Source: a virus. Taken from it: a stretch of 64,000 bases of DNA. Both the position numbers and the translations under genes were made by a program. The notes under the pieces are model-generated. The model was not told the origin of the DNA, searched no databases, and saw nothing but the letters and a program-made list of their open reading frames with translations. The stretch is taken from IMG/VR virus record IMGVR_UViG_3300025168_000036; one strand, given 5' to 3'. Positions 30,451 to 55,222 of the stretch are shown here, piece after piece. Numbering within the stretch: the first letter of the stretch is position 1; every line of letters starts with the position of its first letter.

Positions 30451-30451
30451 A

Positions 30452-33189: not shown

Positions 33190-33235
33190 ATGTATAATAT
33201 AACAATTTTTTGTGAATTACTTAACTTTTTTAATT

Positions 33236-35951: not shown

Positions 35952-36412
35952 AATTTTTCTACCTTACTGTTAAATTTATAATCTAATAATTGTATTCCTC
36001 TTAGCTTAGCAGTGAAAAAAGTTCTATAGCTATCACCTAAACCAAAAGTATCTGTCTTATATGTTGCCTTTAATACTGTTTTATAGAAGTTTCTTGGGTC
36101 TGCCTGCATTTGAAGAACTGGTATATCTAATGCCAATATTTCAGGTGTTGTATCTAGTGTTCTTAAACCTACAGATTCAACCCATCTATTAAATGCACTA
36201 TATGATACTTTATCCAATGACATACAATGAGTCTTCTTTAGGTGTTCTGCATTTAGTACAACTAATACTTGCCTCTTACTTGCACCTTCTAGCCCTTTGT
36301 ATCTACACTCAATTAACATACCTCTTTCTAGTTTAGCTATATTTGTTGGGTACTTACCTTGCACTCTAATCAAGTGCTCATTTAATCTACCTTCTACCTT
36401 TTGCTTAGCCAT
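35930..36412 (-). CDS. hypothetical protein
   Basis: ORF in operon context. Confidence 0.6.
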   Translation of the reverse strand: MAKQKVEGRLNEHLIRVQGKYPTNIAKLERGMLIECRYKGLEGASKRQVLVVLNAEHLKKTHCMSLDKVSYSAFNRWVESVGLRTLDTTPEILALDIPVLQMQADPRNFYKTVLKATYKTDTFGLGDSYRTFFTAKLRGIQLLDYKFNSKVEKLWRKNSL

Positions 36413-36866
36413 CGAATTTTATCTCGCCCATTTCATTACATGCCTCTAAGAATCTCTTAAAGTGCTTAGTGTCTTTTGTTTCTAATTTAGACTCATACTT
36501 TAGTGTGCCCTGCGAAGCACTAGAAGCCTCATCTTCTGTTAGCTGAACAATTGGTGTGTATGACCAGCCCCATTTATCCTTGCGCCCCTCAGGATATATC
36601 ATTCCTCTCTCAGTCTGTATAGTTGTTGGGTACCAATATGATTCTCCATCATCAAATCTTAGGTCTTTCATTAATTTTGGCATATTCGATTCATACTTTT
36701 CTATATCAAAGTCTGGGTTCTTTTTATAATTTAACGGATTTTCATTAGTATAGAATCCACTTCCAACACACATCTTTGACACTCCATGTCTATCATCAAG
36801 CTCTTGTATTACATGCTTTTCATTTGTTATTGGGCTTACTACCCATTCAGCTTTGCTATTATCCAT
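36405..36866 (-). CDS. hypothetical protein
   Basis: ORF in operon context. Confidence 0.6.
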   Translation of the reverse strand: MDNSKAEWVVSPITNEKHVIQELDDRHGVSKMCVGSGFYTNENPLNYKKNPDFDIEKYESNMPKLMKDLRFDDGESYWYPTTIQTERGMIYPEGRKDKWGWSYTPIVQLTEDEASSASQGTLKYESKLETKDTKHFKRFLEACNEMGEIKFDG

Positions 36867-38119
36867 TATACTTTCTCCAGTTTTGGTATGTTTAACTTAA
36901 TCTTTTTTGCAAACTTTGGAAGATTTGATTCAAGTATTTTATCAAAACTTTTTGTCATTTCATCCAAATTAAAGTCTTCTCTTATTAATCTTGCCTGCTT
37001 TCTTGCATCTGGTATATATGTCTTATAATTCTTAAATACATCTTTTAATATACTTGATGCATAGCCATAATCAACATAAAACCATTTCGAGCCTTTTAAT
37101 ATCATATTATTTGCTGCAGATTTGTCCACTTCCATTAGCTTACCTGGTAGCTTAATTGCATGTGTAGTGAAGTCTACTTGTCCTGACCAATTTGATACAA
37201 TTAGTGGCTTTTGTGTTATACAGAATTCTGCTAGTGGCCTTCCATATCCTTCACCATGAGAAAATGACACCATAGCCTTAATCTTTGGATGATTATATAA
37301 ACCATTCATCTCGTCTTCAGTTAATTTACCTTCAAGAACATATATGTTTGGAGGATTATCATATCCTTCAGTAATTTGTTGTATCTTTTTATCTATTTCG
37401 TTATATTCAAGTATGCTAAATGTTGCACCAGATGTCTTTATTACTAGTGCTGGCCTCTTTGATTTGCCTGTATTCTTAAATGTTTCTAAGAATGTCTTTA
37501 TTGTTCCACCAATATCTTTTCTGTCATGGCCAAACCCTCCTGCAATCCAATGTCCTGTAAATAAGAAGCAAAAGTCTTCATCTATATTGTCTAGGCTATC
37601 TACTATTGTAGCTGGTATCTCAGCCTTGTCAACCTTTCTAAATACATCTGTATCTATTCCTTCAAATAGTACGTCTATTGGAACTTCACACTTAAGCGAG
37701 CCTATAATTTCACCTGTTTGGTCATTTTTTTTATCATATACTGTATCCACAAGAATTTGCCTTGCGTGGTGTGATGGTACGATTACTCTGTCCATTCTAT
37801 TACAGCCATCTATCCACTCGTGAGGTGCCTGTGTTGTTTCTATTCCAGCAGTAATTCCTATATTATATTTTGCAACTTTCTTGAATTCATTAGGTACTGA
37901 TAGCTGCATGAATACATCAATTTGTTGCTTTTGATCTTTAAGTACATACTTTTCAAATTCTGGAAACTTATCATTTGGGCAGTCTCCCCAGTTTGTTGGA
38001 ACACATTTAATATCAAACCTATCCATAGCTATTAAGCTTTTTAATAGATCTCTTGCATGATCTCCATATCCAGATCTTGAAAATATTGGGGCCTGAAAGC
38101 CTATTGTTGTTTTACTCAT
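36866..38119 (-). CDS. GT-B glycosyltransferase (GT4-like)
   Basis: SGYG, GEGYGRPLAE, SNWSG motifs. Confidence 0.85.
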   Translation of the reverse strand: MSKTTIGFQAPIFSRSGYGDHARDLLKSLIAMDRFDIKCVPTNWGDCPNDKFPEFEKYVLKDQKQQIDVFMQLSVPNEFKKVAKYNIGITAGIETTQAPHEWIDGCNRMDRVIVPSHHARQILVDTVYDKKNDQTGEIIGSLKCEVPIDVLFEGIDTDVFRKVDKAEIPATIVDSLDNIDEDFCFLFTGHWIAGGFGHDRKDIGGTIKTFLETFKNTGKSKRPALVIKTSGATFSILEYNEIDKKIQQITEGYDNPPNIYVLEGKLTEDEMNGLYNHPKIKAMVSFSHGEGYGRPLAEFCITQKPLIVSNWSGQVDFTTHAIKLPGKLMEVDKSAANNMILKGSKWFYVDYGYASSILKDVFKNYKTYIPDARKQARLIREDFNLDEMTKSFDKILESNLPKFAKKIKLNIPKLEKV

Positions 38120-39537
38120 CTTATAACTCCCGTAGGGTATTTTATTAATTTATTATTTGTTTTTCTTTTTAGTGTAAATATTTTTCTAGGCTTAAATGAA
38201 TTAAGACAAATATCAATAGAGTTAGATACGCCATCTGCCATTGCTTGCGCAGTAAAATTATTTGCTAAGGCCCATTCTCTACCTTTTGTTCCAGCTGAAG
38301 ATCTTTCATCTTTGCTTAATGAATATACACTATTTATTGCATTTGTTATATCACTTACACTAACTCTACTATCATAAATATAAGGTGTTACTGGTGAACC
38401 TACCAAGTTTATTTGTGGCCACATTGGAAATGCCCATTCACCATGTTCTTTATATCTACCATTACTATTACTTGGCCAAGATTCTGTATAGTCATTTACT
38501 GTTAGGTCATTACCTTTTTCATTCTTAAAGCCCATCTGGTCCTGCAGGCCACCTATACAGCTTGCAATAATTGGTGTTCCTGACATTATTGATTCCATTA
38601 CACTAAGACCAAATCCTTCAGCTGAGCTTGGTTGACAGGTTACATCTGAAAGATTGTATAGATAATTTAGCTGATTTGATGGTATCTTTCCACTTGAGAA
38701 TATAACATTTGCTTTAGGAGCTAATGCTTTAACTACTGCAGGGAGATCTGTTCCATTTTGATCTATTGGATCTGTATGTAGTATTAGAAATGCATTTTGC
38801 CTTTCAGCCTCAGTCTCTAGTGAATCAACAAATGTTTTATATGCTAGTATTAAATCTTGTGGTCTCTTTCTTTGTATATTTCTGCTATTAAATAGTAAAA
38901 CAAAAGAATCATCACTTAGTTGTGGGAAATATTTATCCTTAAATTCAATTAAGCCCTTATCAGATTTGTCAAGTGGCTTAAATACCTTTTCATCAACTCC
39001 ATGTGGTACATATGTTAAATCTACACCTTCTTTTCTCGGATTCTTTTGGCATACATGCTTATTTATATTATATGTTTGTTTTGATATTGCAATTAGTGAA
39101 TCACAACAGTCATAGAATGGCTCATTCCAATGAGGAAAAGGAAGGTCATCCCATATATTATAGTACATAATAGGAGTAGTTTGTCTTAATTCATGCTCCA
39201 TTTGATATAGCCAACCCCAAAACCTTGGGTCTGTAAAGTGTATTATTGCATCAGGCTTCTCGATTGATAATATCTGCTGTAATATTTGCTTGTTTCCATA
39301 ACCATCTACTGGATATAACTTAAGATAGAAGTTATCAACACCGCTATCCCTTTTTACATCCTCATTTTTACTTAAGTCAACTACATTACCTTTATCTGGT
39401 GATTGTAGTGCACCTGCTATCTGTACCCAGTCATATTTATCTAAAGACTTTAGTACTATTTCTTTACTCATTGTGCCAACACCAGACGGTAGCCTAATAT
39501 CATCACCTAATAAGAGTATCTTCTTCTTTTTTGTCAT
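38116..39537 (-). CDS. GT-B glycosyltransferase (GT4-like)
   Basis: PHGVD, RNIQRK, EGFGLSVMES..SGTP, GGL. Confidence 0.88.
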   Translation of the reverse strand: MTKKKKILLLGDDIRLPSGVGTMSKEIVLKSLDKYDWVQIAGALQSPDKGNVVDLSKNEDVKRDSGVDNFYLKLYPVDGYGNKQILQQILSIEKPDAIIHFTDPRFWGWLYQMEHELRQTTPIMYYNIWDDLPFPHWNEPFYDCCDSLIAISKQTYNINKHVCQKNPRKEGVDLTYVPHGVDEKVFKPLDKSDKGLIEFKDKYFPQLSDDSFVLLFNSRNIQRKRPQDLILAYKTFVDSLETEAERQNAFLILHTDPIDQNGTDLPAVVKALAPKANVIFSSGKIPSNQLNYLYNLSDVTCQPSSAEGFGLSVMESIMSGTPIIASCIGGLQDQMGFKNEKGNDLTVNDYTESWPSNSNGRYKEHGEWAFPMWPQINLVGSPVTPYIYDSRVSVSDITNAINSVYSLSKDERSSAGTKGREWALANNFTAQAMADGVSNSIDICLNSFKPRKIFTLKRKTNNKLIKYPTGVIR

Positions 39538-39551
39538 AACCTTTTCCCTAA

Positions 39552-39722
39552 TTATTTATTAAATTTGCTTCTAAACTCTTTGTCTTTAATATACATTTCC
39601 AAAGTTAAATTAACTAACTTTTGAAAAGTAATACCTTCCTTAATACTAAGAATTTTGAACTCCTTGTGAATGTTTTTATCTACGTTCACAGATGTTAACC
39701 TTTTTTTGTGTCTATCCATCAT
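39552..39722 (-). CDS. ribbon-helix-helix DNA-binding protein (56 aa, not in ORF track)
   Basis: hand translation MMDRHKKRLTSVNVDKNIHKEFKILSIKEGITFQKLVNLTLEMYI...; GGAGG SD. Confidence 0.65.
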   Translation of the reverse strand: MMDRHKKRLTSVNVDKNIHKEFKILSIKEGITFQKLVNLTLEMYIKDKEFRSKFNK

Positions 39723-39758
39723 AACCTCCAATTATATTTGTATATAAATATATATTCA

Positions 39759-40160
39759 TTATGAAATAATTACGACTTTCTTATTATTTTTTTTAGCTTC
39801 TGTGAGTGCATGGTTAGTTCCTCTTGCCTCGTTTCCAGTTGCTACAAATCCTATAACTACATCACAATACTTTGCTAACATAACATTTCTTATAAAGAAG
39901 TGCTTTGTATTATATTGCTTTCCGTAATATTTCTCGTTAAGTGCTGAATAAAAATTGTAGACAGTATGTGCCGGATTAAATTCAACATATTTACAGTTAA
40001 ATTCTAGTGCAAACTTCTTTGCATACCTGTCTGCACCATCTTTGCATCCGCCACTAACAATTGTTAACTTTGACCCGAACTTTTTCTGTAAGTTAAAAAT
40101 TGTGTCCTTAACCTTCTTTCTATTTTCGTATTGCCTACTTCCTATTATTCCTACTTTCAT
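39759..40160 (-). CDS. SLOG/YspA-like protein
   Basis: IIGSR, VSGGC..GAD, RN..LA..CD, GT.H motifs. Confidence 0.75.
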   Translation of the reverse strand: MKVGIIGSRQYENRKKVKDTIFNLQKKFGSKLTIVSGGCKDGADRYAKKFALEFNCKYVEFNPAHTVYNFYSALNEKYYGKQYNTKHFFIRNVMLAKYCDVVIGFVATGNEARGTNHALTEAKKNNKKVVIIS

Positions 40161-40387
40161 TTTCTATTCTTATTTCTATTTGGTCTATATATATACCATG
40201 CCCTTTCGTGAAAATAGTATAATATCATTTTTGTAAAGAGCTCAAGTCCTCCCACCTTTAGCCCAACAATTGGGTCTCCTGTAATTAGCCAACCTAATGC
40301 CATTGTGTCCAATGTTCCTATAGCTCTCCACGTAATAGTTTTAACTATGTGCCTTTTTCTTGCTGGCCAACTATTTCTTACAATCAC
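40157..40387 (-). CDS. DUF2061-like small membrane protein
   Basis: KTITWR.IGTLDT and YYFHERAW. Confidence 0.8.
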   Translation of the reverse strand: MIVRNSWPARKRHIVKTITWRAIGTLDTMALGWLITGDPIVGLKVGGLELFTKMILYYFHERAWYIYRPNRNKNRK

Positions 40388-40737
40388 AAGGAACCCTCCT
40401 TTCTCATTTGAGCTCTAATCTTTGTTGCTGAAATTTGTTCAACTTGATTAGGTGGTACGTGTTCTATAACTTCATATCCTACACCTCTACCATAATTTAC
40501 TGATTCTATGTCTGGAACTATTGTTATTTTTATTCTACCTTCATCTATTAAGCCTTTTAGCTCACTACTTAGATTTGTTAGAACCTCATGTGGTGTCCAA
40601 GGTTGATTTTCATTTGGTTTAACATCTCTTATTGCTATCCATACATTCTTACCTTCATTAAGCCTTTGATCTATTAACCATCGGTGTCCTTTGTGCCAAG
40701 GCTGCCACCTTCCTATAAACATTGAGTACTTTTTCAT
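40384..40737 (-). CDS. HIGH-type nucleotidyltransferase (cytidyltransferase-like)
   Basis: GRWQPWHKGH and ISATKIR motifs. Confidence 0.85.
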   Translation of the reverse strand: MKKYSMFIGRWQPWHKGHRWLIDQRLNEGKNVWIAIRDVKPNENQPWTPHEVLTNLSSELKGLIDEGRIKITIVPDIESVNYGRGVGYEVIEHVPPNQVEQISATKIRAQMRKEGSL

Positions 40738-41495
40738 ATCCCTTTATCCCTTTTTACATTTATTGCTATTGCTCTTTTGCCAGACTTATTTGGGTCCATA
40801 TCATTTATAATATATCTAGGGCCTCTTTCAATACCCATAATTAATTTATCATATGGGATTCCACTTTTTGTTAGCTCACCTATCGTAAGCCCCTTTAATG
40901 TCTCTGGTCTAGCAGTTGTTAATATTATCATATGGCCATCATCATACCATTCATTTAACTTATCCACTGTTGCCTTTATTGGTTCTGCATCTGTAGATTC
41001 ATATGTTTCAAATTTTCTGTACTTAAATATTGTTCCATCAATGTCGCAGAAGTATGTATTTTTCTTCTTTCTATTAAATTCAATACCTTCAAGGCACTCA
41101 TCAAGTGTCGGAGAGCCTGTTGTATCAATATCTATAAAGTGCTCTATTGGCTTTTCATAATCTTGTGCAAAATATTTCTCTCTTCCCCTTATATCAGTTG
41201 TGTGTACATATATCTCAGTGACATCATTTGTCTCTTTTAATTCATCTCTCATATCTCTATAAGGTGCAACTACTGACACTACTGGTGTAAACCCTTTATT
41301 GTCTAGGAATCTACAAAGGTCTAGTACTGACCTTATATTCTTTCTCCTACCTTCTGGACTATAATTAAAATTTTGAAATAGATCCCTTAATCCATCTCCA
41401 TCTATGTGAATACAATTATCACTACATCTATCTATAAGTGCTTTTGCTAATGTTGTCTTTCCAGCTCCTGGCTGGCCTGTAAACCAATATATCAT
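40734..41495 (-). CDS. cysC: adenylylsulfate kinase fused to a HAD domain
   Basis: WFTGQPGAGKTT, DGD.LR, R..NI, YEKP; C-terminal DIDGT, TAR and ND motifs. Confidence 0.85.
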   Translation of the reverse strand: MIYWFTGQPGAGKTTLAKALIDRCSDNCIHIDGDGLRDLFQNFNYSPEGRRKNIRSVLDLCRFLDNKGFTPVVSVVAPYRDMRDELKETNDVTEIYVHTTDIRGREKYFAQDYEKPIEHFIDIDTTGSPTLDECLEGIEFNRKKKNTYFCDIDGTIFKYRKFETYESTDAEPIKATVDKLNEWYDDGHMIILTTARPETLKGLTIGELTKSGIPYDKLIMGIERGPRYIINDMDPNKSGKRAIAINVKRDKGI

Positions 41496-43828: not shown

Positions 43829-45487
43829 TTACATCATTCCAAATCCACCACCCATTGGTTGGGCAGCTTCTTCTTCATTGTTATTTTCATTAATAATTAT
43901 ACACTCAGTTGTTAAAATTGTACCTGCAACTGAAACAGCTTTTTCTAATGCAACTCTTGTTACTTTTGCTGGATCAATAATACCAGATTTCATCATATCA
44001 ACAACTTGTTCTGTTCTTGCATCAAAGCCCATAGTAAAAGGTACAGAGTCTTCATCTGACATTCCATCAAATGCATGAATCTCATTCCAGATATTTGCTG
44101 CATCAAGGCCTGCATTTTTCATAATGATTTCAAATGGCTCTTGTACTGCTTCCATCACAATTCTATAGCCTGTAATTTGGTCCTCATTTTCAAATACATC
44201 ATCAACAACATCATCATCAAAGCAACTTCTTAGTGCAATTCCTCCACCAGGTACTATACCTTCATCAAGTGCAGCCCTAGTAGCATGTAATGCATCCTCA
44301 ACTCTGTCCTTCTTTTCCTTCATTTCAATTTCTGATTCAGCACCTATTTTAAGAATTGCTACACCTCCAGCCATCTTTCCAACTCTTTGCTGATATACTT
44401 CTTTTTCATAGTCTGAGTCTGATGTTTCAAGTAGTACCTTAATCTCGTTTACTCTATTTGCTATTGATTCTGGGTCACCTGCACCATCAACTATTGTTGT
44501 TGACTTTCCACTAACAGTTACTGTTTTTGCACTACCTGCAAAGTCTGATACATTAATAGTATCTAGTTTATGACCTTTATTCTTACTTATTACTGTTCCT
44601 CCAGTAATTGTTGCAATATCCTCAAGCAATTGAGTTCTCTTTTCACCAAATTCAGGTGCCTTTACTGCAGCAACCTTAAGTGTTCCCCTTGCCTTATTTA
44701 CAATAAGTCCAGCTAGTGCCTCGCCTTCAACATCATGAGCAACTATTAATAGTGGCTTGTCTTGTGCGATTGCAGCTTCTAATGGTTTTACTAACTCTTT
44801 AAGTGTTTGAATCTTTTTGTCAACCAATAATATCCATGGGTCTTCAAATTGTGCATGCATGTGATTATTATCTGTAACAAAGTATGGTGATATATAACCT
44901 CTATCAAATTGAACACCTTCTACTGTTTCAAGGTATGTATCATTTGTTCTAGACTCCTCTACTGTAATTACACCTTCTCTTCCTACTTTATCCATTGCAG
45001 TTGCAATTAACTTACCAACCTCAGCATCATTGTTTGCTGAAATTGTAGCCACCTGTTCTATTTCTTCTTGAGAAGAGATATCTGTTGCTATATCATCAAG
45101 CTTTTCTACTACTGAAGTTACCCCAATATCCATTCCCCTTTTTATATCAACTGGATTAGCCTTTAGTTCTGTGATACAATTAAAACCTCTTCTTAGTATT
45201 GAATTTGCTAATACAGTGGCTGTAGTTGTTCCATCACCTGCCTCATCGTTAACTTGATTTGCAACCTCTTTTACCATTTGTGCACCTGCATTTTCAACTT
45301 CATCTTCCAAAAATACTTCCTTTGCAACAGAAACACCATCTTTTGTTGATACAAACTCACCATTTTTTTCAAGAATTACATTTCTACCTTTAGGTCCTAA
45401 AGTTGCACTAACTGCTGTTGAAAGTTTTTGAACACCTTTTCCAATTAGGCTTCTTGCATCTTCGTTAAATTCAATTCTTTTCTTCAT
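43829..45487 (-). CDS. groL: chaperonin GroEL
   Basis: [44 protein letters not shown]-like tail. Confidence 0.97.
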
Positions 45488-45780
45488 TATTTTGTCTCCT
45501 TATAAATTGTTAAAATTTCATCTTCTCTACATACGATGAACTCTTCTCTATTAACTTCAAGTCTTTTAGCTGAAAATTTTGGATAGTATACTACATCGCC
45601 TACCTTACATTGCATATGACCTCTTTTTCCAGTATTTAGTAGTGGGCCGGGACCTACTGCTAATACTTCGCCTTTAAGTGATACTTCTGCATCAACTTCT
45701 GGCATAATTACTCCACCTGATGTCATTTCATCTGGTTCTAATCCTTTTAATACTACATTTCCTCCTGTTGGTGTAAACAT
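45487..45780 (-). CDS. groS: co-chaperonin GroES
   Basis: TSGGVIMP, GEVLAVGPG, KVGD.V. Confidence 0.93.
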   Translation of the reverse strand: MFTPTGGNVVLKGLEPDEMTSGGVIMPEVDAEVSLKGEVLAVGPGPLLNTGKRGHMQCKVGDVVYYPKFSAKRLEVNREEFIVCREDEILTIYKETK

Positions 45781-46499
45781 TATATTGCCTCCTTATCTTT
45801 AATTCTTAATTTATTTTCTATTTCATGTGAGCTTCTTACACATGATATTCCTAATTGGTCTTTCATTACTTCTGGTGTTGTGCAAGACTGGTTAAAGCTT
45901 GCAAAATCTGTTTTACTTGGGAACCTTCCACAACCTGCAAATAGACACCCAAATGCATTTGATAAATAATCTGCAGCTGCGTAGTCACACTTTCCTATTA
46001 AGTCACATCCTGGCTTGAAGCTTTTTGCAGCTTCAATTCCCATATCGATCATCTTCTCTCTTAATAGCCAATGTAAACCTACAATAAACTCTTCCTCGCA
46101 AAACTTAAGCCTTCTCATCATCTGTCCTCTAAGAGAATTAATATTTTGCTCAACTACGTATGTACATTCTCTTGACATTAAATTAAACAATTCAGGATTT
46201 TCGCTTTCAGATACTCTGTGCTTTTCCAGTTCAGATAGCGTTTTTATGGTTTTGTCGCGAAAGTCTGAGTTCTTCTCCATTAACTCATATACCTGAGTAT
46301 AAACCACATATGTTGGGTTTGGATTAACCTCATATTGCTTAAATTTAATTCCTACTCTAGCCCTTGAATGTTGATCATATTGGCAAATTGGTGTCCCTTT
46401 TACTCTATATGTTATCATACCAGAAGCCTGATGCCAATTCAAAATGTCTACTTCTAGACCTTTCACTCCACACTTTATTTCAATGTTATTAACTTTCAT
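45780..46499 (-). CDS. ThyX-fold protein B (keeps QxxRxR, lacks the SxR motif; Cys-rich tail)
   Basis: ITYRVKGTPI..YDQHSRAR and N..SL.....RR align by eye with ThyX. Confidence 0.6.
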   Translation of the reverse strand: MKVNNIEIKCGVKGLEVDILNWHQASGMITYRVKGTPICQYDQHSRARVGIKFKQYEVNPNPTYVVYTQVYELMEKNSDFRDKTIKTLSELEKHRVSESENPELFNLMSRECTYVVEQNINSLRGQMMRRLKFCEEEFIVGLHWLLREKMIDMGIEAAKSFKPGCDLIGKCDYAAADYLSNAFGCLFAGCGRFPSKTDFASFNQSCTTPEVMKDQLGISCVRSSHEIENKLRIKDKEAI

Positions 46500-47307
46500 A
46501 AAATAATTCTTTATCCTTTTTGCTTAAATCTTCAAATTTATATTCTCTTATCTTATGTAATACAACATCTGTATTTTCAAATATTACACTCAGATATAAA
46601 CCTATAAATGGGAATTGTTTTTCAACAACACTTACAAGTTCTTTATAGAGTATTGCCAATGACTGCTCTTTTACATTATCACCAAACTTTCCTGATGCAT
46701 TGAATCCTCTCATTGATACTAATGAAAGTAAATTTTGGCCAAAATGATATGAGTGTTGATAGCTTTGTGGTAAGAATGTTCTACCAGACTGCCAACTTGA
46801 TTGATCTTCATTTAATACATCTGCATATATTTGCTTTAAGTCATTAAATGTTTTCTTTTCTTCTGATGATAGTTTTCTTTTGCCTACAGTAATAATGTCT
46901 ACATCAGACTTATTATTGTCTCTGCATCCTATACTCATAAAACTTGTGAATGGGGTCTGAGTGTGGTAGTCAAATAGCCATCTTGGTACACCTCTTACTC
47001 TGAATATAAATTGTACCATTTCTCTTGCTTGTGGTAGTGTATTGTGAGTCAATACAGCTTTTACAACCTCAAACTTACCTTCAGGAGTTGTTTCTGGCCA
47101 TTTTTGCTTAAACTTATTGTCACCCCAAGTAGAAGTACTTGTCACAAACATTGACTTATAAGGATTTGTCATGTGGTCTTCTAATGTGACCTCAACCTCA
47201 TCAATCATATCGTGAAATTCAGTAACAACTGGTGGCCTCTCTTCTGGGAGAGTTCCCATAACTTTTCTTAGGTTTTCTACAACCTCGTAACTTAATTTAT
47301 CTTCCAT
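46489..47307 (-). CDS. ThyX-fold protein A (keeps xCRD and R..LP, lacks RHR)
   Basis: EMVQFIFRVRGVPR, SIGCRD and GRTFLPQ...QNL.SL align by eye with ThyX. Confidence 0.7.
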   Translation of the reverse strand: MEDKLSYEVVENLRKVMGTLPEERPPVVTEFHDMIDEVEVTLEDHMTNPYKSMFVTSTSTWGDNKFKQKWPETTPEGKFEVVKAVLTHNTLPQAREMVQFIFRVRGVPRWLFDYHTQTPFTSFMSIGCRDNNKSDVDIITVGKRKLSSEEKKTFNDLKQIYADVLNEDQSSWQSGRTFLPQSYQHSYHFGQNLLSLVSMRGFNASGKFGDNVKEQSLAILYKELVSVVEKQFPFIGLYLSVIFENTDVVLHKIREYKFEDLSKKDKELFYES

Positions 47308-47343: not shown

Positions 47344-48312
47344 TTAAATATAAAAATGTAACGAATCAAATTTTATATTTATTTTAATATTTTCTACTTT
47401 AGTATTTTTATCAAACCAGATTTTTATCATTTTGCATATAGATATAAAGTCATGGTTAAATAGCCCTACGTTTGAGGACCTAAAGTTTACACTTACATTT
47501 AATGTATTATTTCTAAGTAGAATATGAACATATGACAGGCACTCATCATCTGTAAATACAAATCTTCTACTATGTGAGTCTTCCTTCTTTCCATAGTATC
47601 CTGATAGCTCTGATTCTATCTTTTTTGTGAATTTAGCTAATTGGAATTTATAACTGTCAACTTCAAGCTGCATATAGTCATTTATATTCTCCAACCCTGT
47701 ATATAGATCTTTTGATGCCCAACTTTCCACATCGTCATAAGACATATCTAAATCCATCTTATAATTTATAAGCTCCTTAGTACCACCAACACTAGCTCCG
47801 TATTCCTGTAATGCAGTCATTGCTGTTCCTATTTGGTGCTCTGGGCTTAATAAAAATTCATTATACATTTCTATAATGCCATTAATTCTTTTTGCAATAG
47901 ATCCTGGATCATCCTCTCCATCTATTACCCAAAAGTTTCTATGCTTTTCAAATCTAATGCATAGATCTTTATATATTCTTGCCACATGCTTTATTGACGA
48001 CCAAGACTGGAATTCATCTCCCCTATTACAATATCTCCTATGCAACTCTGCCTCACTAATGTCAAAATAGAAAACTATATTGTCATTAAGATAAGATATA
48101 AACTCATGTTCTCTTTCTTCATTATTGTCGAATCTGTTATGTAGCATGCCGTAAGCCATTATTGACATCAAGCCTCTATCGTTTAAGAGGACGTCATAGT
48201 CGTTGCCAGATTGTATAATTTCCCAAACCTTTTGGTATTGAGTTGTCTTACCTGAACAGTCAGGTCCTTCAAATATCAATTGTAGTCTTTTATTCATCAT
48301 TAAACCTTTCAT
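47344..48312 (-). CDS. dNMP kinase fused to a ThyA/dCMP-hydroxymethylase-like domain
   Basis: EGPDCSGKTT and DR..SIMAY; C-terminal SRR..C...LLR..LN..VNFRSS.....HDF...SLHFY. Confidence 0.75.
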   Translation of the reverse strand: MKGLMMNKRLQLIFEGPDCSGKTTQYQKVWEIIQSGNDYDVLLNDRGLMSIMAYGMLHNRFDNNEEREHEFISYLNDNIVFYFDISEAELHRRYCNRGDEFQSWSSIKHVARIYKDLCIRFEKHRNFWVIDGEDDPGSIAKRINGIIEMYNEFLLSPEHQIGTAMTALQEYGASVGGTKELINYKMDLDMSYDDVESWASKDLYTGLENINDYMQLEVDSYKFQLAKFTKKIESELSGYYGKKEDSHSRRFVFTDDECLSYVHILLRNNTLNVSVNFRSSNVGLFNHDFISICKMIKIWFDKNTKVENIKINIKFDSLHFYI

Positions 48313-50536
48313 AAATTTTATTTAAGAACATTGTCTCACTATCTTTAAATCTACCAAGAGATATTAGCACCAATTCACCAGGTTCTATTTCCTCAAAACC
48401 TTTCATCTTATTCTGCCATATAAAGAAGTCTATTGAGCCATTGTCATCTTTTAGTGTTGCAATACCCATAGGCTTACCAGAAGACTTACTTCTTTTTGCA
48501 ATATATTTATCTACTATACCTATAATATAACAACCCATCTTGTCACCAAGTTTCATCCTTACTTCACTTGGTAGCATTGTATTTTGAAACTTAAAGTCTC
48601 TTTCTGTAAGTATTTGTACCATCTCTTTAATAGTGTCATTTATAAGATACTTTACATTAGTAGACATTGCACCATATTCAAGTTCTTTTAACTCTGTAAA
48701 GTTAAACTTTTTATCTTCATAGTCAGGTTGCTTTTTCTTTGGTAGCCTACCTTTATGAAATTGATTATAAGTATCCACCTCCTCATCCCATGAATCAAAT
48801 GCACCTGCAAATATTAAGTTTTCAACCTTTGACTTATTTTTAATTTCAGATCTGTCCAAGAAGTCCTGGAAGCTATTATATGGTGCGTGATTTAGTATTA
48901 GCTCCACATCACTAGGTGAAACAGTCTTAATTGCATCAAAGCCAAATAGTATACTTTTATCAACTATTGTAAATCCTTTTTGAGATGCATTTATATTTGC
49001 ACGTTCAACTTTAAAGCCTAGTTTCTTTGCAACATTAATGTGCTTCATCATATCAGTTCCTGGTTCAGAGTTGTCAAGCATAACCTTCATATATTCAATT
49101 GGGTAATTTGCCTTAAAGTATCCACCCCAATAAGATATTAATGAATAAGATACAGAATGGGCTTGATTAAAGCCATAGGCTGCAAATGCAGCACACTTTT
49201 CAAATAGATCCATTGCATCTGATTCCTTGATATGAACTGATAAGCCTTTGATAAACTTTTCCTTGTATAGACCAATATTCTTTTGCCTTTGCTCCATTGA
49301 TTCCCAGTCACGGTACTTAACTAATACCTTTCTAAACTTATTTGATTCTGAATCTGTAAACCCTGCAATAAGTGCCAGTTTCATAATTTGTTCTTGATAG
49401 GTAATAATTCCATATGTTTCTTCTAGGACTGTGTTAAGTGGTTCTGGCCACCTTTCGTACTCACCTGAATGTTTACGTTTGGCATACTCAGTTGGCATAC
49501 CTTCCATAAGTGGGCCAGGTCTTAATAGTGCAGAAACTGCTGATAGTTCAGCAACTGAGTCTGCCTTAACATCTTTTAAGATACCTTTTGCTGTGCCTGA
49601 TTCAAATTGAAATATTGTATCAGTATCTGATGTGTGGAATATTTTCTTAAATGTATATTCATCATCTAGTGGAATGTCACCTAGTTTTAGATTAAGTCCA
49701 TGCCTTTTATTAACAAGGTCCATAGTTGCACCTACTATTGATACATTTTTAAGGCCAAGTATATCAAACTTTACATATCCCATATGCTTAAGGCCGTAAG
49801 TTCCAGTACCTTCCTCCCATGCTGATGATATACCATCACCAATTTTATTTAGTGCAATATTTTCATCTAAGTTTTCAGATGATATAATAACACCAGCTGG
49901 ATGTGTTCCGTAATTCCTAAGCATACCTCTAATCTTTTCTGCATAGAATTTAACCTTGGGGTATTTTGTAAAGTATTGTTTTAGTTTGTCAAAGTCATTA
50001 GCAAGTTCATCAAATGTTTTCTTTTCAGTTGACTCACCAGCCATGATAGTCTTTGTCATACCGAATGTATCCTTTGCAGGGACACCTAATGCACCAGCAA
50101 CATCTTGTATAATTGCCCTTGTTTTTGCAAGCTGATATACACCAATTTGTTTTACCTTTTCTCTACCAAACCTTTCATAGATGTAATTAATGACCTTTTG
50201 CCTTCCATGCCTACATACATCTTGATCAATATCAACAAGATCGACATCACCATCAGTTATAATCTCTGGCTTTTTATTTGTTTCAATGGGGTTTTCCTCA
50301 TAAATATCCAACAGCCAGTACAACAGACTATTTTGTTTATTACCTGGCAATTTCTTGCCTTTATTTTCGGTTATAAACGCCTGAATCTGCTTGTACTGGT
50401 CTGGATATCGTGCCTGGTAAAAATCGATTGCATCACACTCTTGTTGTAGCCAAGCAATATGCTCATCAAGACCTCTTTCCCTAAGGACCTTTGATGCATT
50501 CGTAAATATTTTATCTCCAATTAGTATCTTACTCAT
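48290..50536 (-). CDS. dnaE: DNA polymerase III alpha, C-terminal half of split gene
   Basis: DIDQD, HPAG, KFDILGL, FQFES, RPGP, YQEQ, YGFN.AHS..Y, OB fold. Confidence 0.93.
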   Translation of the reverse strand: MSKILIGDKIFTNASKVLRERGLDEHIAWLQQECDAIDFYQARYPDQYKQIQAFITENKGKKLPGNKQNSLLYWLLDIYEENPIETNKKPEIITDGDVDLVDIDQDVCRHGRQKVINYIYERFGREKVKQIGVYQLAKTRAIIQDVAGALGVPAKDTFGMTKTIMAGESTEKKTFDELANDFDKLKQYFTKYPKVKFYAEKIRGMLRNYGTHPAGVIISSENLDENIALNKIGDGISSAWEEGTGTYGLKHMGYVKFDILGLKNVSIVGATMDLVNKRHGLNLKLGDIPLDDEYTFKKIFHTSDTDTIFQFESGTAKGILKDVKADSVAELSAVSALLRPGPLMEGMPTEYAKRKHSGEYERWPEPLNTVLEETYGIITYQEQIMKLALIAGFTDSESNKFRKVLVKYRDWESMEQRQKNIGLYKEKFIKGLSVHIKESDAMDLFEKCAAFAAYGFNQAHSVSYSLISYWGGYFKANYPIEYMKVMLDNSEPGTDMMKHINVAKKLGFKVERANINASQKGFTIVDKSILFGFDAIKTVSPSDVELILNHAPYNSFQDFLDRSEIKNKSKVENLIFAGAFDSWDEEVDTYNQFHKGRLPKKKQPDYEDKKFNFTELKELEYGAMSTNVKYLINDTIKEMVQILTERDFKFQNTMLPSEVRMKLGDKMGCYIIGIVDKYIAKRSKSSGKPMGIATLKDDNGSIDFFIWQNKMKGFEEIEPGELVLISLGRFKDSETMFLNKIYERFNDE

Positions 50537-50537
50537 A

Positions 50538-51821
50538 TTATATCATTTTTGGGAATGAAGCTTTATCTCTACCTAGGTCTAAGAACCTCTCAAAGATTAA
50601 ACCCCAATCTAGTGGATTGACTTCTGTTAAGCCTAGCACAAATGCAATTAGGCTTCCTGCAACTGAACCTCTACCAGGTCCAATATATATCTTTTCTTTA
50701 TTACAATATTGTATTATGTCCTCAAGTATAAGAAAGTATCCAATGTAATTCATTTTACGTAATACTGAATATTCATATCTTATCCTATCTTTTACCTCAT
50801 CTGATATATCATTGCCAAATCTGTACTTAAGTCCATGTTTTATCTTTTCTTGAAATATGACTTGTTCATCATCATATAATTTTGGAAGCTTTACATCGGC
50901 ATCAAAGTTTGTGTCTTGAACAAGGTCAAGTATTTTGTGACAGTTATTTGCCGATTCAATAAATACATCTTCAGTAAACCACTCATTGCAGTGGTGCTTT
51001 TTCCAAGATGCATGCATTTCGTCATAGTTTTTATAATAAAGTTCTCTGGCATGATAACCTTTTAAGTTTTCACAATCAGTAATACCATCCTTATTAGATC
51101 TATCTCTAATTGTTATTAGCATGTCATGAACTTCCTGATCATCATAGCGAATATAGTGAGCGTCATTGGTCACAACTGTTTCTATATCAAGTTCTTTTGC
51201 AATCTGAACAAGTTGTTTATTACAATCAATTTGTTCTTGCATCTGATGTACTTGTAGTTCTATAAAGTATTTGTCGCCAAATCTGTCCTTATATCTTTTG
51301 GCCACACTTTTGGCCTGTTCGTAGTCACCATTCATTAAATGAAACGGTATTTCACCACCTAGACATGCAGAAGTGATTACAAGACCCTCACCATATTTAC
51401 TAAGCATTTCAAAATCTGTTCTTGGTTTAGAATAGAAGCCATTCATGTGGGCATCATTATTAATTCTAATTAGATTTTTTATTCCTTTATTATTATATGC
51501 TAAGACAAGAAGGTGAAAATACTTTCTGTATTTTTGTTTGTTTTCATCTATCTGCCTATCACCCTCAGACATAAATCTGTGATTGTTAACATATAGTTCA
51601 CAACCAAACACAGGAGTAATACCCTCTTGTCTAGCATACTTCCATAACCTGGCCCAGGATGAGATCACACCGTGATCAGTAATTGCTAAGTGACTTAAAT
51701 TGTTCTCCTTGCCGAAGTCAATAAGTTCCTGCAACTTTGAAAGTGCATCTCTGGTTGAAAATTCACTATGGCAATGTATTTGTACGAAGCCATTCTTAAC
51801 ATCTTTCCTGGGTTTTATCAT
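50538..51821 (-). CDS. dnaE: DNA polymerase III alpha, N-terminal half (PHP domain)
   Basis: HCHSEFS, TDHG, TNDAHY, GPGRGSVAGS, FERFL. Confidence 0.93.
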   Translation of the reverse strand: MIKPRKDVKNGFVQIHCHSEFSTRDALSKLQELIDFGKENNLSHLAITDHGVISSWARLWKYARQEGITPVFGCELYVNNHRFMSEGDRQIDENKQKYRKYFHLLVLAYNNKGIKNLIRINNDAHMNGFYSKPRTDFEMLSKYGEGLVITSACLGGEIPFHLMNGDYEQAKSVAKRYKDRFGDKYFIELQVHQMQEQIDCNKQLVQIAKELDIETVVTNDAHYIRYDDQEVHDMLITIRDRSNKDGITDCENLKGYHARELYYKNYDEMHASWKKHHCNEWFTEDVFIESANNCHKILDLVQDTNFDADVKLPKLYDDEQVIFQEKIKHGLKYRFGNDISDEVKDRIRYEYSVLRKMNYIGYFLILEDIIQYCNKEKIYIGPGRGSVAGSLIAFVLGLTEVNPLDWGLIFERFLDLGRDKASFPKMI

Positions 51822-51891: not shown

Positions 51892-52242
51892 TTACATGCA
51901 ATGGTTCATCCACTTTCCGTAAAACTTAAGGTATTCTTTTTCCAGTCTGCCAAACGTTAGTGTCTTATAGTGCACACTTTCTAGCTTATCATTTGGGAGG
52001 TGTGTTGAAAGATAGTTATCTATTAAATTTTGCAAACCTTTTATATCATGATACTGTATGAGATTAGTGGGAAAGCAAAACATGAACTCTTTTGTGCCGT
52101 CTTCTCTATTTAGTATATAGCTCCAAAAGTCATCTATATATAATCTTGAATCTATATTACTCTCTACTTGTGATTCCCAAAATTTAATCTCAGCCTTTGC
52201 AGCTGGATTTTCATAGAAGCAGGTTGTTAATTTTACTTTCAT
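51892..52242 (-). CDS. hypothetical protein
   Basis: ORF inside the nucleotide-metabolism block. Confidence 0.55.
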   Translation of the reverse strand: MKVKLTTCFYENPAAKAEIKFWESQVESNIDSRLYIDDFWSYILNREDGTKEFMFCFPTNLIQYHDIKGLQNLIDNYLSTHLPNDKLESVHYKTLTFGRLEKEYLKFYGKWMNHCM

Positions 52243-53161
52243 GTTTTATACCTTTATTTAGTTTTCTATCTAGTGTCTCTTCTGTATATAAGCCAAAGTT
52301 TGGCTTTAAGTATACTTCAAATCCACTATCATTTAATTTATTTGCATTATTTATATCATCATCTATACAAAATGCAACCTGTTCGGGGTCAAAGTTATTT
52401 ATAATATACTTTTCCTTCTCTTCATCAAACACAATTGCATCATAGCATATACCATTGTCCTTAAGCCACTTAATTGTGTCTGAATATATTCTAAAATACT
52501 TTTTATATGGCCTTGCGGTAAGAAGTACAACACTATATTTCTTGCATGCGTCTTTCATAAACTGCTTTGCACCATCTAGCACATCTAATGTTGCTTTTAC
52601 ACCACATGTTCTATATTCAGATTTTATTCTATATTGTTCTTTTTTATCAACTTCTGATTTGAATTGACTTAGACTTTCATAGCCAGACCACTTTAAGAAT
52701 CCACCTGGCCAATCTGCAAGTACACCATCTATATCTATAAAAGCAATCTTTTTATCAGATGCCTTAATCTTTTTCATTACCTTTTCTTGGTTAAATTTAG
52801 CCTCTACAACTCTTGATTTGTCCATAAACTTTTCATATAAGTCATCTACACTAAAGCCATTAAGTTGAATTATTCCAAATAGATATTTTAATACATCAAC
52901 ACATTCCTCTAATACATTATCATTTACATCTTCAGTCTTTTTTGATGTGTGCATCTTCCAATCTATTTCATCTAGTACTTCATATACTTCCTTAGATAAT
53001 GCTAGAACATATTCTTTATTCCATTTTATCTTTAATTCCTTATCATTAACGACATCATCTATTGTAAGATTGTGTTTATCTTTAAAGAACTTCTCTGTAA
53101 AGCTCTTTTGTAATTCGAAAATTTCTTTTAATTTATCTTTCATCTTAATTCCTTTGTCCAT
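52211..53161 (-). CDS. all-alpha dNTP pyrophosphatase (dimeric dUTPase/dCTPase-like) fused to a HAD 5'-nucleotidase-like domain
   Basis: EVYEVLDEIDWK, EECVDVLKY; DIDGVLAD, LTAR, IDD. Confidence 0.8.
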   Translation of the reverse strand: MDKGIKMKDKLKEIFELQKSFTEKFFKDKHNLTIDDVVNDKELKIKWNKEYVLALSKEVYEVLDEIDWKMHTSKKTEDVNDNVLEECVDVLKYLFGIIQLNGFSVDDLYEKFMDKSRVVEAKFNQEKVMKKIKASDKKIAFIDIDGVLADWPGGFLKWSGYESLSQFKSEVDKKEQYRIKSEYRTCGVKATLDVLDGAKQFMKDACKKYSVVLLTARPYKKYFRIYSDTIKWLKDNGICYDAIVFDEEKEKYIINNFDPEQVAFCIDDDINNANKLNDSGFEVYLKPNFGLYTEETLDRKLNKGIKHESKINNLLL

Positions 53162-54099
53162 CCTAGAACTCTATCTAGTACCTCATTTGCCTTTACCTTA
53201 TGATTCCATTGTGCGAATCTACCTAACATATATATTTTGTCTATCTTATCTAGATTAATACTATTTTGAATTTGGAATGGCAAGCCTTCAAATTTATGTA
53301 TTATAGGATAAGGTGGAGTTATTGGCTCCACAGACTCATATACCATATAATTATTAAAGTATGTCTTTCTTGACCAGCCTTCTGTGTGACCATAAATATA
53401 GTCAAACTTGGATAGCTCACCTTTATTTGTCTGGTAGAAACATTTTGGTAGTGTTGTAAGATCATATTTATCTAGCTCATCTCCATCCCATATTGAACCA
53501 AGTGGAGATTCCTTAGTAAGAAGCTTTAGATTAAGTGTGTTTATAACAACATTATAGCTTCTACACATTGAAGGTCCTGCACCATCCTTTGCATATATGT
53601 ATCCGTGTGAGTCTACCTTTGTAATTCTTTCTCTTTTAAGCTGACCTCTATCAATATCAATTATTTTTAATAGTGTTTCAAATAAGAATTTATAGCTATC
53701 CTCACCCATGTCTTCTATTTCTAGGTGCTGTATTTCATTCTTGCCTTCAGATAGGTAGCTTGACTCAGACTTACTTTTTCCTCTAGTAAGTTTTGTATAC
53801 TTATTCTTAAAACCTGGAGGTAGGACTACGTCTCTTTTTCCATCTTCCTCATACCCAACAATTGCTACAACTGTTTTTATTCTATATGAATGCAAACCTG
53901 CATCATTTAATACACTTCTAACGAATTTTTCTGAATTTTCTGTTTTTTGGATTAATCTAGGTCCTGGAATAAACGGTAAATTTAACTGGCCTAGTGGATT
54001 TTCATCATAAACAGCATATTCTGGAAAGTAGTATCCAGCTATTAAACCTGCCGGACCTCCACCTAATATACAACCTTGTTTCATTTTATTTTCTTTCAT
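53140..54099 (-). CDS. FAD-dependent oxidoreductase (Glf-like architecture)
   Basis: GGGPAG dinucleotide-binding motif, PGPRL, C-terminal LGRFAQW. Confidence 0.7.
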   Translation of the reverse strand: MKENKMKQGCILGGGPAGLIAGYYFPEYAVYDENPLGQLNLPFIPGPRLIQKTENSEKFVRSVLNDAGLHSYRIKTVVAIVGYEEDGKRDVVLPPGFKNKYTKLTRGKSKSESSYLSEGKNEIQHLEIEDMGEDSYKFLFETLLKIIDIDRGQLKRERITKVDSHGYIYAKDGAGPSMCRSYNVVINTLNLKLLTKESPLGSIWDGDELDKYDLTTLPKCFYQTNKGELSKFDYIYGHTEGWSRKTYFNNYMVYESVEPITPPYPIIHKFEGLPFQIQNSINLDKIDKIYMLGRFAQWNHKVKANEVLDRVLGWTKELR

Positions 54100-54134: not shown

Positions 54135-55019
54135 TTATAAGCAACTTAAATATCTTTCACCTCTGTCACATAGTATTGTAATTGCGTTTGTTTTATCATT
54201 ATCTCTTAACCATTGAAATGCAGCTTTAACATTAGCACCTGCACTTATTCCTACAAATAGTCCATATCTTAGAGCTAAGTGTCTTGCAGCTGCCTTAGCA
54301 CATTCAGTTTTAACTGGTACAATATCAGAAACAAAGTTTAGATCTACTAAAAATTTGCTTCCATCACCAATTCCTTGTATGCCATGAAGTCCTGGTTCTC
54401 CTCCGCTCATTACTGCACTTTCCTCTGGCTCAACTGCTACTATATTTATTCCTGGAACTTGCTCCTTTAGATATCCTCCTGCACCCATTATAGTTCCTCC
54501 AGTTCCTGTGCCTACTACAAATGCCTCTGGCCAGTGATCTGTTAGTTCATAGTATTCATCATGTATTTCTGGTCCTGTTGTTTTGTAGTGTGCCTCTATA
54601 TTAAGTGGGTTATGAAATTGATTGCAATTAAAGTATCCAAATGTTTCTGCTAAAGTATCTCTAGTTTCTATTGCTCCATCAAAATCTCCGGCATCAACTT
54701 GTATTAAGTCTGCTCCGTAAAACTTTAGCATTTGTTTTCGCTCTTCAGACATATTAGATGGCATAACAATTTTCATCTTATAGCCCCTTTCTGCTGCTAA
54801 CATTGCAAAAGCTATTCCTGTATTGCCCGAAGTTGCCTCTATTAGTGTGCCTCCTTTTTTAATTAGCTTTCTATTTTCGGCATCATTTAATATGTATGTT
54901 GCCATTCTGTCTTTAACACTACCTCCTGGGTTCATAAACTCACATTTGCCCCATACTGTATACTTTCCAAATCTAATTGGTATAAGCGGTGTATTACCTA
55001 CATTTTTGCTTAATCTCAT
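54135..55019 (-). CDS. cysK: cysteine synthase (PLP)
   Basis: VGNTP, NPGGSVKDR, TSGNTG, GTGTGGT, HGIQGIG, DRGERYLS. Confidence 0.93.
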   Translation of the reverse strand: MRLSKNVGNTPLIPIRFGKYTVWGKCEFMNPGGSVKDRMATYILNDAENRKLIKKGGTLIEATSGNTGIAFAMLAAERGYKMKIVMPSNMSEERKQMLKFYGADLIQVDAGDFDGAIETRDTLAETFGYFNCNQFHNPLNIEAHYKTTGPEIHDEYYELTDHWPEAFVVGTGTGGTIMGAGGYLKEQVPGINIVAVEPEESAVMSGGEPGLHGIQGIGDGSKFLVDLNFVSDIVPVKTECAKAAARHLALRYGLFVGISAGANVKAAFQWLRDNDKTNAITILCDRGERYLSCL

Positions 55020-55222
55020 TTCTTTTTCGAAACAAAATCTATTGTATCCTCTTGTGATGGCCACCTTATCTCCTTTTTGCAATCTTTACATACCCACATT
55101 ATGTTACTGCTACCTTCCAAAAATGATAGCTCTTGCATTTTATGTGTACACTCTTTTTGTATTTTATTTATTTCTTTTTGTAAACCTTTAATCTTATCAT
55201 TAAGATTTTCTACTGGTTTCAT
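55016..55222 (-). CDS. small zinc-binding hypothetical protein
   Basis: C.H and CKDC. Confidence 0.5.
   Translation of the reverse strand: MKPVENLNDKIKGLQKEINKIQKECTHKMQELSFLEGSSNIMWVCKDCKKEIRWPSQEDTIDFVSKKK

Follow-up and report, generated by a model that had tools for sequence, protein, structure and literature searches.

A phage gene joining a Tmk/YorR-type kinase to a minimal thymidylate-synthase-fold domain with the residue signature of 5-hydroxy-dCMP synthases

A single gene in a 64,000-nucleotide stretch of marine phage DNA (IMG/VR record IMGVR_UViG_3300025168_000036; the whole stretch is referred to below as the window) encodes a P-loop nucleotide kinase of the Tmk/YorR type fused to a minimal domain with the thymidylate synthase (TS) fold. 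Sequence comparisons and structure predictions indicate that the protein is very probably a bifunctional enzyme, which would modify dCMP at C5 and phosphorylate the product of that reaction; that the product of the TS-like domain is 5-hydroxy-dCMP is given about an even chance on the same grounds. On this reading, the window protein would be a kinase-fused, minimal version of an enzyme class discovered very recently, and it belongs to a sizeable, uncharacterized family.

The TS homologs gp48 of phage RB69 and gp80 of phage DLP3 convert dCMP to 5-hydroxy-dCMP in an O2-using reaction with a flavin that is bound loosely (Lee et al., NAR 2026; PMC13326640), and the same paper cites structural work on AfhB of phage HY126. 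According to that study, the 5-hydroxy-dCMP synthases carry L143D/E and N177D, as do dCMP hydroxymethylases, and the substitution D169N was proposed as diagnostic; nine metaviromic D169N homologs selected by its authors all gave 5hodC, and not 5hmdC, in vivo. The gene-cluster table of PMC13326640 places a Tmk/YorR-like “nucleotide kinase” no more than three genes from the synthase, namely, DLP3 gp78 (best match, YorR), RB69 gp45, and RL38J1 gp214, whose role was left without a test there, and its Discussion raises a move of the fold from folate to flavin.

Gene and genomic context

The fusion gene and the neighbors that bear on its function are as follows.

47344..48312, minus strand: whole ORF (P0001), 322 aa, from translation of the window
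48290..51821, minus strand: split DnaE gene (two ORFs), directly upstream of the fusion gene, from context
45780..47307, minus strand: ThyX-like gene(s), directly downstream of the fusion gene, from a weak Pfam Thy1 match
52211..53161, minus strand: dUTPase_2/MazG-type dNTP pyrophosphatase fused to an NT5C-type nucleotidase, from context

A single ORF fills positions 47344..48312 of the minus strand, and the motifs on which a preceding sequence-only reading had relied, SRRFVFTDDEC, LLRNNTLNVSVNFRSSNVGLFNHDF, and DSLHFY, are all present in its translation. That reading had the gene running from 48312; the ORF and its 322-aa translation stand, but the probable start is the ATG at 48297 (MNKR...), the third of three possible in-frame ATGs, since the homologs and the Atlas record begin there. 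This ATG overlaps the stop codon of the upstream DnaE gene as ATGAATAA, and the two genes are apparently translationally coupled.

Every sizeable ORF in the 64-kb window lies on the minus strand, and the G+C content is approximately 33%. The fusion gene belongs to a replication and nucleotide module containing genes for a gp32-like protein, RecA, a 5'-3' exonuclease, DnaB, both ribonucleotide reductase (RNR) subunits, a PLP enzyme, the dUTPase_2/MazG-NT5C fusion, DnaE in two ORFs, the fusion protein itself, the ThyX-like proteins, GroES, and GroEL; a dCMP deaminase gene is also found within the window. The dUTPase_2/MazG-NT5C fusion is a candidate for the depletion of a canonical nucleotide, and its presence together with that of the dCMP deaminase is compatible with base replacement. 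The neighboring ThyX-like genes are the probable source of dTMP. Because they adjoin the fusion gene, and because one relative has a canonical ThyA gene beside its fusion gene, the fused domain would be unnecessary for dTMP production. The ORF at 53140..54099 was considered as an FAD enzyme that might supply reduced flavin, and this assignment was unsupported by Pfam and PDB sequence searches.

The window also contains sugar genes, including GT4-, GT2-, GT25-, GT11-, and GT10-type glycosyltransferases, a GDP-mannose dehydratase, epimerases, and a DegT aminotransferase. A sulfotransferase gene and an APS-kinase-HAD fusion gene sit with the glycosyltransferase cluster, 8 to 20 kb from the fusion gene. 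The cluster could serve the decoration of DNA or, equally, the synthesis of a glycan without a link to DNA.

N-terminal kinase domain

47854..48297, minus strand: P-loop nucleotide kinase domain of the Tmk/YorR type, residues 6-153, from Pfam, PHROG, PDB profile, and hhalign matches
48244..48267, minus strand: P-loop GPDCSGKT, G16-T23, from invariant columns
48175-48180, minus strand: D45-R46, invariant kinase residues
48022-48036, minus strand: LID arginines R93 and R97, invariant kinase residues

The N-terminal half had been described as a dNMP or thymidylate-kinase-like domain, and matches to Pfam, phrog_761, YorR, and Tmk profiles bore this out. The Pfam model Thymidylate_kin (PF02223) was matched with an E value of 2.5e-5 and 24.5 bits, under its gathering cut-off of 27, and phrog_761 (thymidylate kinase) was matched with an E value of 5.6e-10. 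When a 12-sequence full-length profile was searched against the PDB, the best kinase matches were SPbeta YorR (2axp; E value, 5.9e-9), followed by bacterial Tmk proteins (approximately 1e-6). In the alignments with Tmk, residues ~38-84 of Tmk, a stretch of ~45 residues between the P-loop and the DR motif, had no counterpart in the window kinase, and YorR is likewise short.

RB69 gp45, the “nucleotide kinase” encoded in the gene cluster for arabinosyl-5-hydroxycytosine, was aligned to the window kinase with an hhalign probability of 94.6% and an E value of 7e-8, and the two are homologs. Given this homology, the window gene fuses homologs of two neighbors in known clusters. Rhizobium phage RHph_N34 also has a kinase gene next to its synthase gene, annotated in the record as a dNMP kinase. 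This kinase was rejected as a further relative; it gave a match in the P-loop only, with an hhalign probability of 3%, and belongs to another family.

Fold of the C-terminal domain

47347..47850, minus strand: minimal thymidylate-synthase-fold domain, residues 155-322, 168 aa, from an AF2 model, Foldseek, VIA, and the family profile

The C-terminal half had been proposed to be a short ThyA-fold domain resembling a minimal dCMP hydroxymethylase. A ThyA fold is present in the AF2 model of the domain alone, which was built from a 37-sequence alignment (pLDDT, 95.6; pTM, 0.90), and this model superposes on ThyA with Z scores of 11 to 12; the pLDDT of the whole-protein model was 84.5. Foldseek returned 396 PDB matches at an E value of ≤1e-3, and all of the best matches listed belonged to the thymidylate synthase superfamily, the first being the dCMP hydroxylase AfhB of phage HY126 (9iqu; E value, 1.2e-7; TMq, 0.64). 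With VIA-align, Z scores ranged from 11 to 13 and 145 to 156 of the 168 domain residues were aligned, including 148 residues at 3.5 Å for MilA (Z score, 13.0), 147 residues at 3.4 Å for AfhB (Z score, 13.0), and ~151 residues for the ThyA enzymes, with the match to Escherichia coli ThyA confined to its residues 1-210.

Since all 168 residues are spanned and the ThyA match covers residues 1-210 only, the domain corresponds to a TS core that ends right after the H207-Y209 strand. The ThyA segment beyond Y209, which closes over the folate cofactor, is absent, the protein ending one residue after Y321, and ~60 internal residues of ThyA are missing as well. The domain is probably homodimeric, because the Arg pair that is given across the dimer in ThyA is kept.

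The relationship of this domain to known proteins became apparent only with a wider family profile and with structure. Direct searches with the window protein gave no match to the C-terminal domain in Pfam or, by phmmer, in the PDB, and the 12-sequence full-length profile gave none to this domain in the PDB. PF00303 was not matched by the window protein in Pfam, and only 2 of the 37 family members reached an E value of 0.03. When the 37-sequence family profile was searched against the PDB, matches were obtained to T4 gp42 (1b49; E value, 1.4e-8), which substantiates the parallel drawn earlier with that enzyme, and to AfhB (E value, 1.7e-4); furthermore, 14 of the 37 members matched PHROG 160 (thymidylate synthase). 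The T4 gp42 chain in 1b49, which aligned to the family profile, reads MCTNTVQYLIRDKKINAVVNMRSNDVVFGFRNDY...GSLHVY, so that the gp42 string previously quoted is correct.

Active-site residues

47563..47571, minus strand: S248-R249-R250, equivalent to ThyA S125-R126-R127 (phosphate binding, across the dimer), from alignments
47539..47550, minus strand: D255-D256-E257-C258, with C258 as the catalytic Cys (ThyA C146) and D255 at the L143 position, from alignments
47470..47481, minus strand: R278-S279-S280-N281, with R278-S279 equivalent to ThyA R166-S167 and N281 at the D169 position (D169N signature), from alignments
47449..47451, minus strand: D288, at the position of ThyA N177 and T4 gp42 D179 (cytosine specificity), from alignments
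47350..47358, minus strand: H319-F320-Y321, equivalent to ThyA H207..Y209, from alignments

Residues were mapped with a MAFFT alignment that contained RB69 gp48, a Rhizobium phage homolog, an enzyme of the gp42 type, one from a Bacteroides phage, and a canonical ThyA-like protein encoded on a related contig, and with profile and hhalign alignments; codon positions were checked. The TS-like half carries the full three-residue signature, as D255, N281, and D288. The catalytic Cys and the cytosine-specifying Asp noted from the raw sequence were both recovered, C258 being aligned with the nucleophile of gp42, AfhB, and RB69 gp48 and D288 lying at the N177D position of RB69 gp48, the Rhizobium phage protein, and the gp42-type enzymes. 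In the MAFFT alignment, Asn at 177 was found only in the canonical ThyA-like row, and all dCMP-type enzymes had Asp, as D288. There is a one-residue deletion between N281 and D288 relative to ThyA, and the spacing of 20 residues from the Cys to the RS motif is equal in the window protein, T4 gp42, and AfhB. D255 makes the L143 position acidic, as in dCMP hydroxymethylases and hydroxylases, and Y221 corresponds to ThyA Y94 in the same mapping.

The change from RSxD to RSSN was likewise upheld, with N281 placed at the D169 position. Asn at this position was confined in the MAFFT alignment to the window's clade, RB69 gp48, and the Rhizobium phage homolog (RSQN), whereas the gp42-type and ThyA-like rows had Asp. 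In ThyA, the Asp at 169 touches the pterin ring, and Asn there is not known to support the folate reaction. The earlier suggestion of a possibly altered or missing use of folate gains from a published precedent, the Asn at D169 in flavin- and O2-dependent synthases, and from AfhB as the best Foldseek match. By analogy with these enzymes, 5-hydroxy-dCMP would be a more likely product than 5-hydroxymethyl-dCMP, which refines the earlier reading.

R249, C258, R278, S279, and H319 are invariant, and the R250 position is occupied by Arg or Lys. The window protein has Y321, a position that varies across the family, and D255 and D288 are invariant within the window's clade. Two nearly invariant family residues, E180 and E217, are sequence-based candidates that may be equivalent to ThyA E58.

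Family distribution and exchanges at position 169

A word-indexed search identified 21 homologs of 310 to 329 aa, all from marine or other metagenomes, which had both halves in every case and extended down to 36% identity. The aligned homologs had 64 invariant positions across both halves, and the motifs quoted above were invariant across the 21 homologs. An exhaustive profile search with the domain yielded at least 188 representative clusters, either ~300-aa proteins with the domain at the C terminus or ~170-aa stand-alone proteins; the fused clusters numbered ~65. Given the invariant motifs, the 188 clusters, the PHROG 160 matches, and the domain model, the motif resemblance is not a matter of chance.

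In relatives, the fusion gene again directly follows DnaE, split or unsplit, and its downstream neighbor varies among a ThyX-like gene, a canonical ThyA gene, and a gene for an NTP-transferase/phosphodiesterase fusion; one relative has the NTP-transferase/phosphodiesterase fusion and methyltransferases beside the gene. No fused homolog was found among 50,697 phage records by tblastn with the window protein and two divergent fused relatives, and no protein in BFVD matched both domains well; the fusion is thus known only from metagenomes. The family is uncharacterized and metagenome-only. No paper describing such a fusion was found in the literature, and the words “fusion” and “fused” are absent from PMC13326640.

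Asn predominated over Asp at position 169 in the fused forms (45 versus 16), and Asp predominated over Asn in the stand-alone forms (39 versus 10, with some rows probably representing fragments); Glu, His, and Leu were also found at this position in the family. In a FastTree phylogeny of 137 domains, the clade of the window protein (support, 99) contained nine representatives, eight with Asn and one with Asp, the latter (P0023) being a singleton sequence on a contig of 1.6 kb. Across the family, Asp and Asn interchanged ~17 times on the best tree and at least 5 times on well-supported branches, and D-type and N-type fusion genes share one genomic slot, after DnaE. No signal of sites co-varying with the switch was detected in a comparison that was underpowered, with only five independent well-supported pairs. 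This lability may reflect easy switching of chemistry or a residue of less weight in this family; the repeated flips, together with no co-changing site having been shown, suggest that residue 169 is perhaps less decisive here than in full-length enzymes.

Proposed function and alternatives

The protein is best explained as a two-domain enzyme that serves a phage pathway for pre-replicative DNA modification. Its TS-like domain would bind dCMP via Asp288, attack C6 with Cys258, and place a substituent at C5, putatively by a flavin- and O2-dependent hydroxylation of dCMP to 5-hydroxy-dCMP as in AfhB and RB69 gp48. Hydroxylation appears the most likely reaction because N281 replaces the pterin-binding Asp, D255 is acidic, and AfhB is among the closest structures. 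The Tmk/YorR-type kinase would then convert the modified nucleotide to the diphosphate, a host NDP kinase would convert the diphosphate to the triphosphate, and the phage DnaE, encoded immediately upstream, would put the modified nucleotide into DNA. A functional link between kinase and synthase is suggested by the homology of the kinase to RB69 gp45, which is encoded beside the synthase, and by the similar kinases of DLP3 and RL38J1. The present analysis shows the ORF, the two folds, the residue correspondences, the conserved state of the fusion, and the gene neighborhood; from these, we infer the substrate, the cofactor, the product, the specificity of the kinase, the channeling between domains, and any later glycosylation of the base.

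The alternatives differ mainly in the chemistry assigned to the TS-like domain. A miniature dCMP hydroxymethylase that resembles T4 gp42 in depending on folate and is fused to a kinase for 5-hydroxymethyl-dCMP is considered unlikely, even though T4 gp42 is the best solved relative by family profile (E value, 1.4e-8), D255 and D288 are common to gp42-type enzymes, many family members, mostly stand-alone, have Asp at 169, and D-type fusion genes likewise follow DnaE. In the clade of the window protein, eight of nine representatives carry Asn at this position, and Asn, by what is known of ThyA, fails to support the folate reaction; moreover, the domain lacks the C-terminal segment of ThyA past Y209, and the D169N homologs of PMC13326640 all gave 5hodC rather than 5hmdC. 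A catalytic TS-like domain with an undescribed chemistry, involving another C5 substituent, another cofactor, or a ribonucleotide (MilA uses CMP), is also improbable, if slightly more so. It would accommodate the equal standing of MilA and AfhB as best structural matches (Z score, 13.0), the separate lineage formed by the minimal family, with His, Glu, and Leu among its variants at 169, and the relative in which an NTP-transferase/phosphodiesterase fusion and methyltransferases adjoin the gene. The triad D255, N281, and D288, however, matches the published hydroxylase signature exactly, and the gene lies in a deoxynucleotide and replication module with RNR, dCMP deaminase, ThyX, and DnaE.

Least probable is an inert C-terminal domain, retained as a dCMP-binding or dimerization module in a phage thymidylate kinase that serves ThyX. 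A Tmk-type kinase does adjoin ThyX-like genes, and approximately one-third of the ThyA fold has been lost, but no variation is seen, down to ~20% identity, in the nucleophile Cys, the two Arg motifs that bind phosphate, Ser279, His319, or the specificity Asp, a pattern indicating that the active site is under selection, and stand-alone versions without a kinase are common.

Under the favored hydroxylation of dCMP, a flavin may present its uracil-like edge to Asn169, as a pterin pairs through its 2-amino-4-oxo edge with Asp; by analogy, this would be the same logic by which position 177 uses Asn for uracil and Asp for cytosine. A bolder proposal, which we hold doubtful as a whole, is that, through a single residue, ~170-aa TS cores repeatedly change their cofactor site from pterin-type (Asp) to flavin-type (Asn) or back, and that abundant marine phages (probably infecting Bacteroidota) obtain 5-hydroxycytosine DNA from the Asn forms, which are joined to a dedicated YorR-like kinase and coupled to DnaE; this DNA would possibly carry fucose-containing or sulfated glycans from the glycosyltransferase cluster.

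Significance

DNA containing 5-hydroxycytosine and the TS-derived hydroxylases were described only in 2025-2026, and the phages concerned were all cultured ones, of Enterobacterales, Acinetobacter, Shewanella, and Rhizobium. If the window gene makes 5-hydroxy-dCMP, a widespread group of marine phages shares this chemistry. The fusion also offers “Rosetta-stone” evidence on the Tmk-like kinase that stands unexplained in the published clusters, namely, that it acts on the modified nucleotide. Furthermore, the domain would define the smallest thymidylate synthase core still capable of C5 chemistry, and the repeated Asp/Asn exchange could be taken as a natural experiment on the move of the fold from folate to flavin. 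For the production of modified DNA in vivo, it would be convenient to have the synthesis and the activation of modified dCMP in a single gene.

Comparison with known systems

The window domain shares the TS fold with AfhB (PDB 9iqu and, as the FAD complex, 9iqc), RB69 gp48, DLP3 gp80, and RL38J1 gp216. Common to the window domain and the 5-hydroxy-dCMP synthases are the catalytic Cys, an acidic side chain at position 143, Asn at 169, Asp at 177, and a chain end soon after the H-x-Y/F strand. A Tmk/YorR-like kinase partner is also found in both, fused in the window protein and encoded nearby for the synthases. The window domain is smaller, however, with 168 aa compared with 217 to 238 aa in the 5-hydroxy-dCMP synthases; it is ~65 residues shorter than AfhB, and relative to the synthases it lacks ~39 residues before SRR and another 16 from SRR to the Cys. 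It also appears to belong to a minimal family of its own, apart from the AfhB/gp48 clade, with an hhalign probability to RB69 gp48 of 40% and profile scores that place gp42 above AfhB.

T4 gp42 (1b49), the best solved relative by profile, shares with the window domain the 20-residue Cys-RS spacing, the cytosine-specifying Asp, and the GS-x-H-x-Y strand; it differs in being a stand-alone, 246-aa user of CH2-THF with RSND, whereas the window protein is fused and has RSSN. The ThyA enzymes of E. coli and L. casei have the same core fold, in which the window domain has Asp for Asn177, Asn for Asp169, and Asp for Leu143. On the kinase side, YorR (Bacillus subtilis SPbeta; PDB 2axp and 3kb2), RB69 gp45, and DLP3 gp78 resemble the window kinase as short, Tmk-like P-loop proteins, and GPDxxGKT, the DR motif, and the RGDE lid are common to all. 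These three are single-domain proteins without a defined substrate, whereas the window kinase forms the N-terminal half of a fusion.

Nucleotide-metabolism genes around the fusion gene

The fusion gene, which encodes the kinase joined to the minimal thymidylate-synthase-fold domain, lies among the following genes, mostly of nucleotide metabolism and replication, together with one dCMP deaminase gene elsewhere in the window.

1022..1477 (-), dCMP deaminase
45780..47307 (-), two consecutive genes downstream of the fusion gene
48290..51821 (-), DnaE split between ORFs of 427 aa and 748 aa
52211..53161 (-), one protein with a dUTPase_2/MazG-type NTP pyrophosphatase domain and an NT5C-type 5'-deoxynucleotidase domain
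53140..54099 (-), 319-aa protein
54135..55082 (-), PLP-dependent (PALP, cysteine-synthase-like) enzyme

A single base separates the two DnaE ORFs, and the second ORF's stop codon shares sequence with the start of the fusion gene. At the same position in contigs of relatives, DnaE is split in L005 and L011 and unsplit in L015. The specificity of the two-domain pyrophosphatase/deoxynucleotidase would reveal which canonical nucleotide the phage removes, and L015 also carries a similar NT5C-like gene of 314 aa. The first of the two genes downstream of the fusion gene had a weak Pfam match to Thy1 (ThyX; E value, 2.6e-4), and the second had no Pfam match. The 319-aa protein likewise had no Pfam match, and a PDB sequence search returned nothing for it beyond 19 residues at the N terminus that resemble a dinucleotide-binding motif (E value, 0.49); these searches gave no support to reading it as an FAD enzyme. 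The gene for the PLP-dependent enzyme has the RNR genes on one side and the nucleotide cassette on the other.

Glycan cluster and host

Other parts of the window encode sugar-related, secretion-related, and chaperonin functions.

21378..24305 (-), 975-aa protein with a C-terminal type IX secretion (Por_Secre_tail) sorting domain
26843..41495 (-), large glycan cluster
32569..33189 (-), sulfotransferase within the glycan cluster
43829..45780 (-), GroES and GroEL

The glycan cluster also encodes GDP-mannose 4,6-dehydratase, an epimerase/reductase, a DegT aminotransferase, an FkbM methyltransferase, transferases of the GT2, GT2+GT25, GT11, GT10-like, and GT4 types, an APS-kinase-HAD fusion, and a small protein resembling a cytidylyltransferase. 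The cluster may act on a DNA base, the virion, or the host surface. The sorting domain of the 975-aa protein points to Bacteroidota as the phage host.

Comparison with relatives

Throughout the family of the C-terminal domain (P0023-P0170), the Cys, the RS motif, and the Asp that specifies cytosine were all invariant. The residue at the ThyA D169 position varied, being Asn in 80, Asp in 66, Glu in 11, His in 4, and Leu in 3 of 170 family sequences, with flips between Asp and Asn among close relatives (P0023-P0170).

The relative L010 carries, two genes after its 38%-identical fusion gene, a short canonical-type ThyA of 225 aa that has Asp169 and Asn177 (L010:1304-1981), so that a single phage has thymidylate synthases of both types. 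In L005, the 36%-identical relative, the fusion gene is followed by a gene for a 599-aa NTP_transf_3 and phosphodiesterase protein (L005:10993-12792), and its neighborhood includes genes for methyltransferases, an Aminotran_5 enzyme, a UDG, and a dUTPase_2-like protein, which suggests that the downstream elaboration of the modified base differs in this relative.
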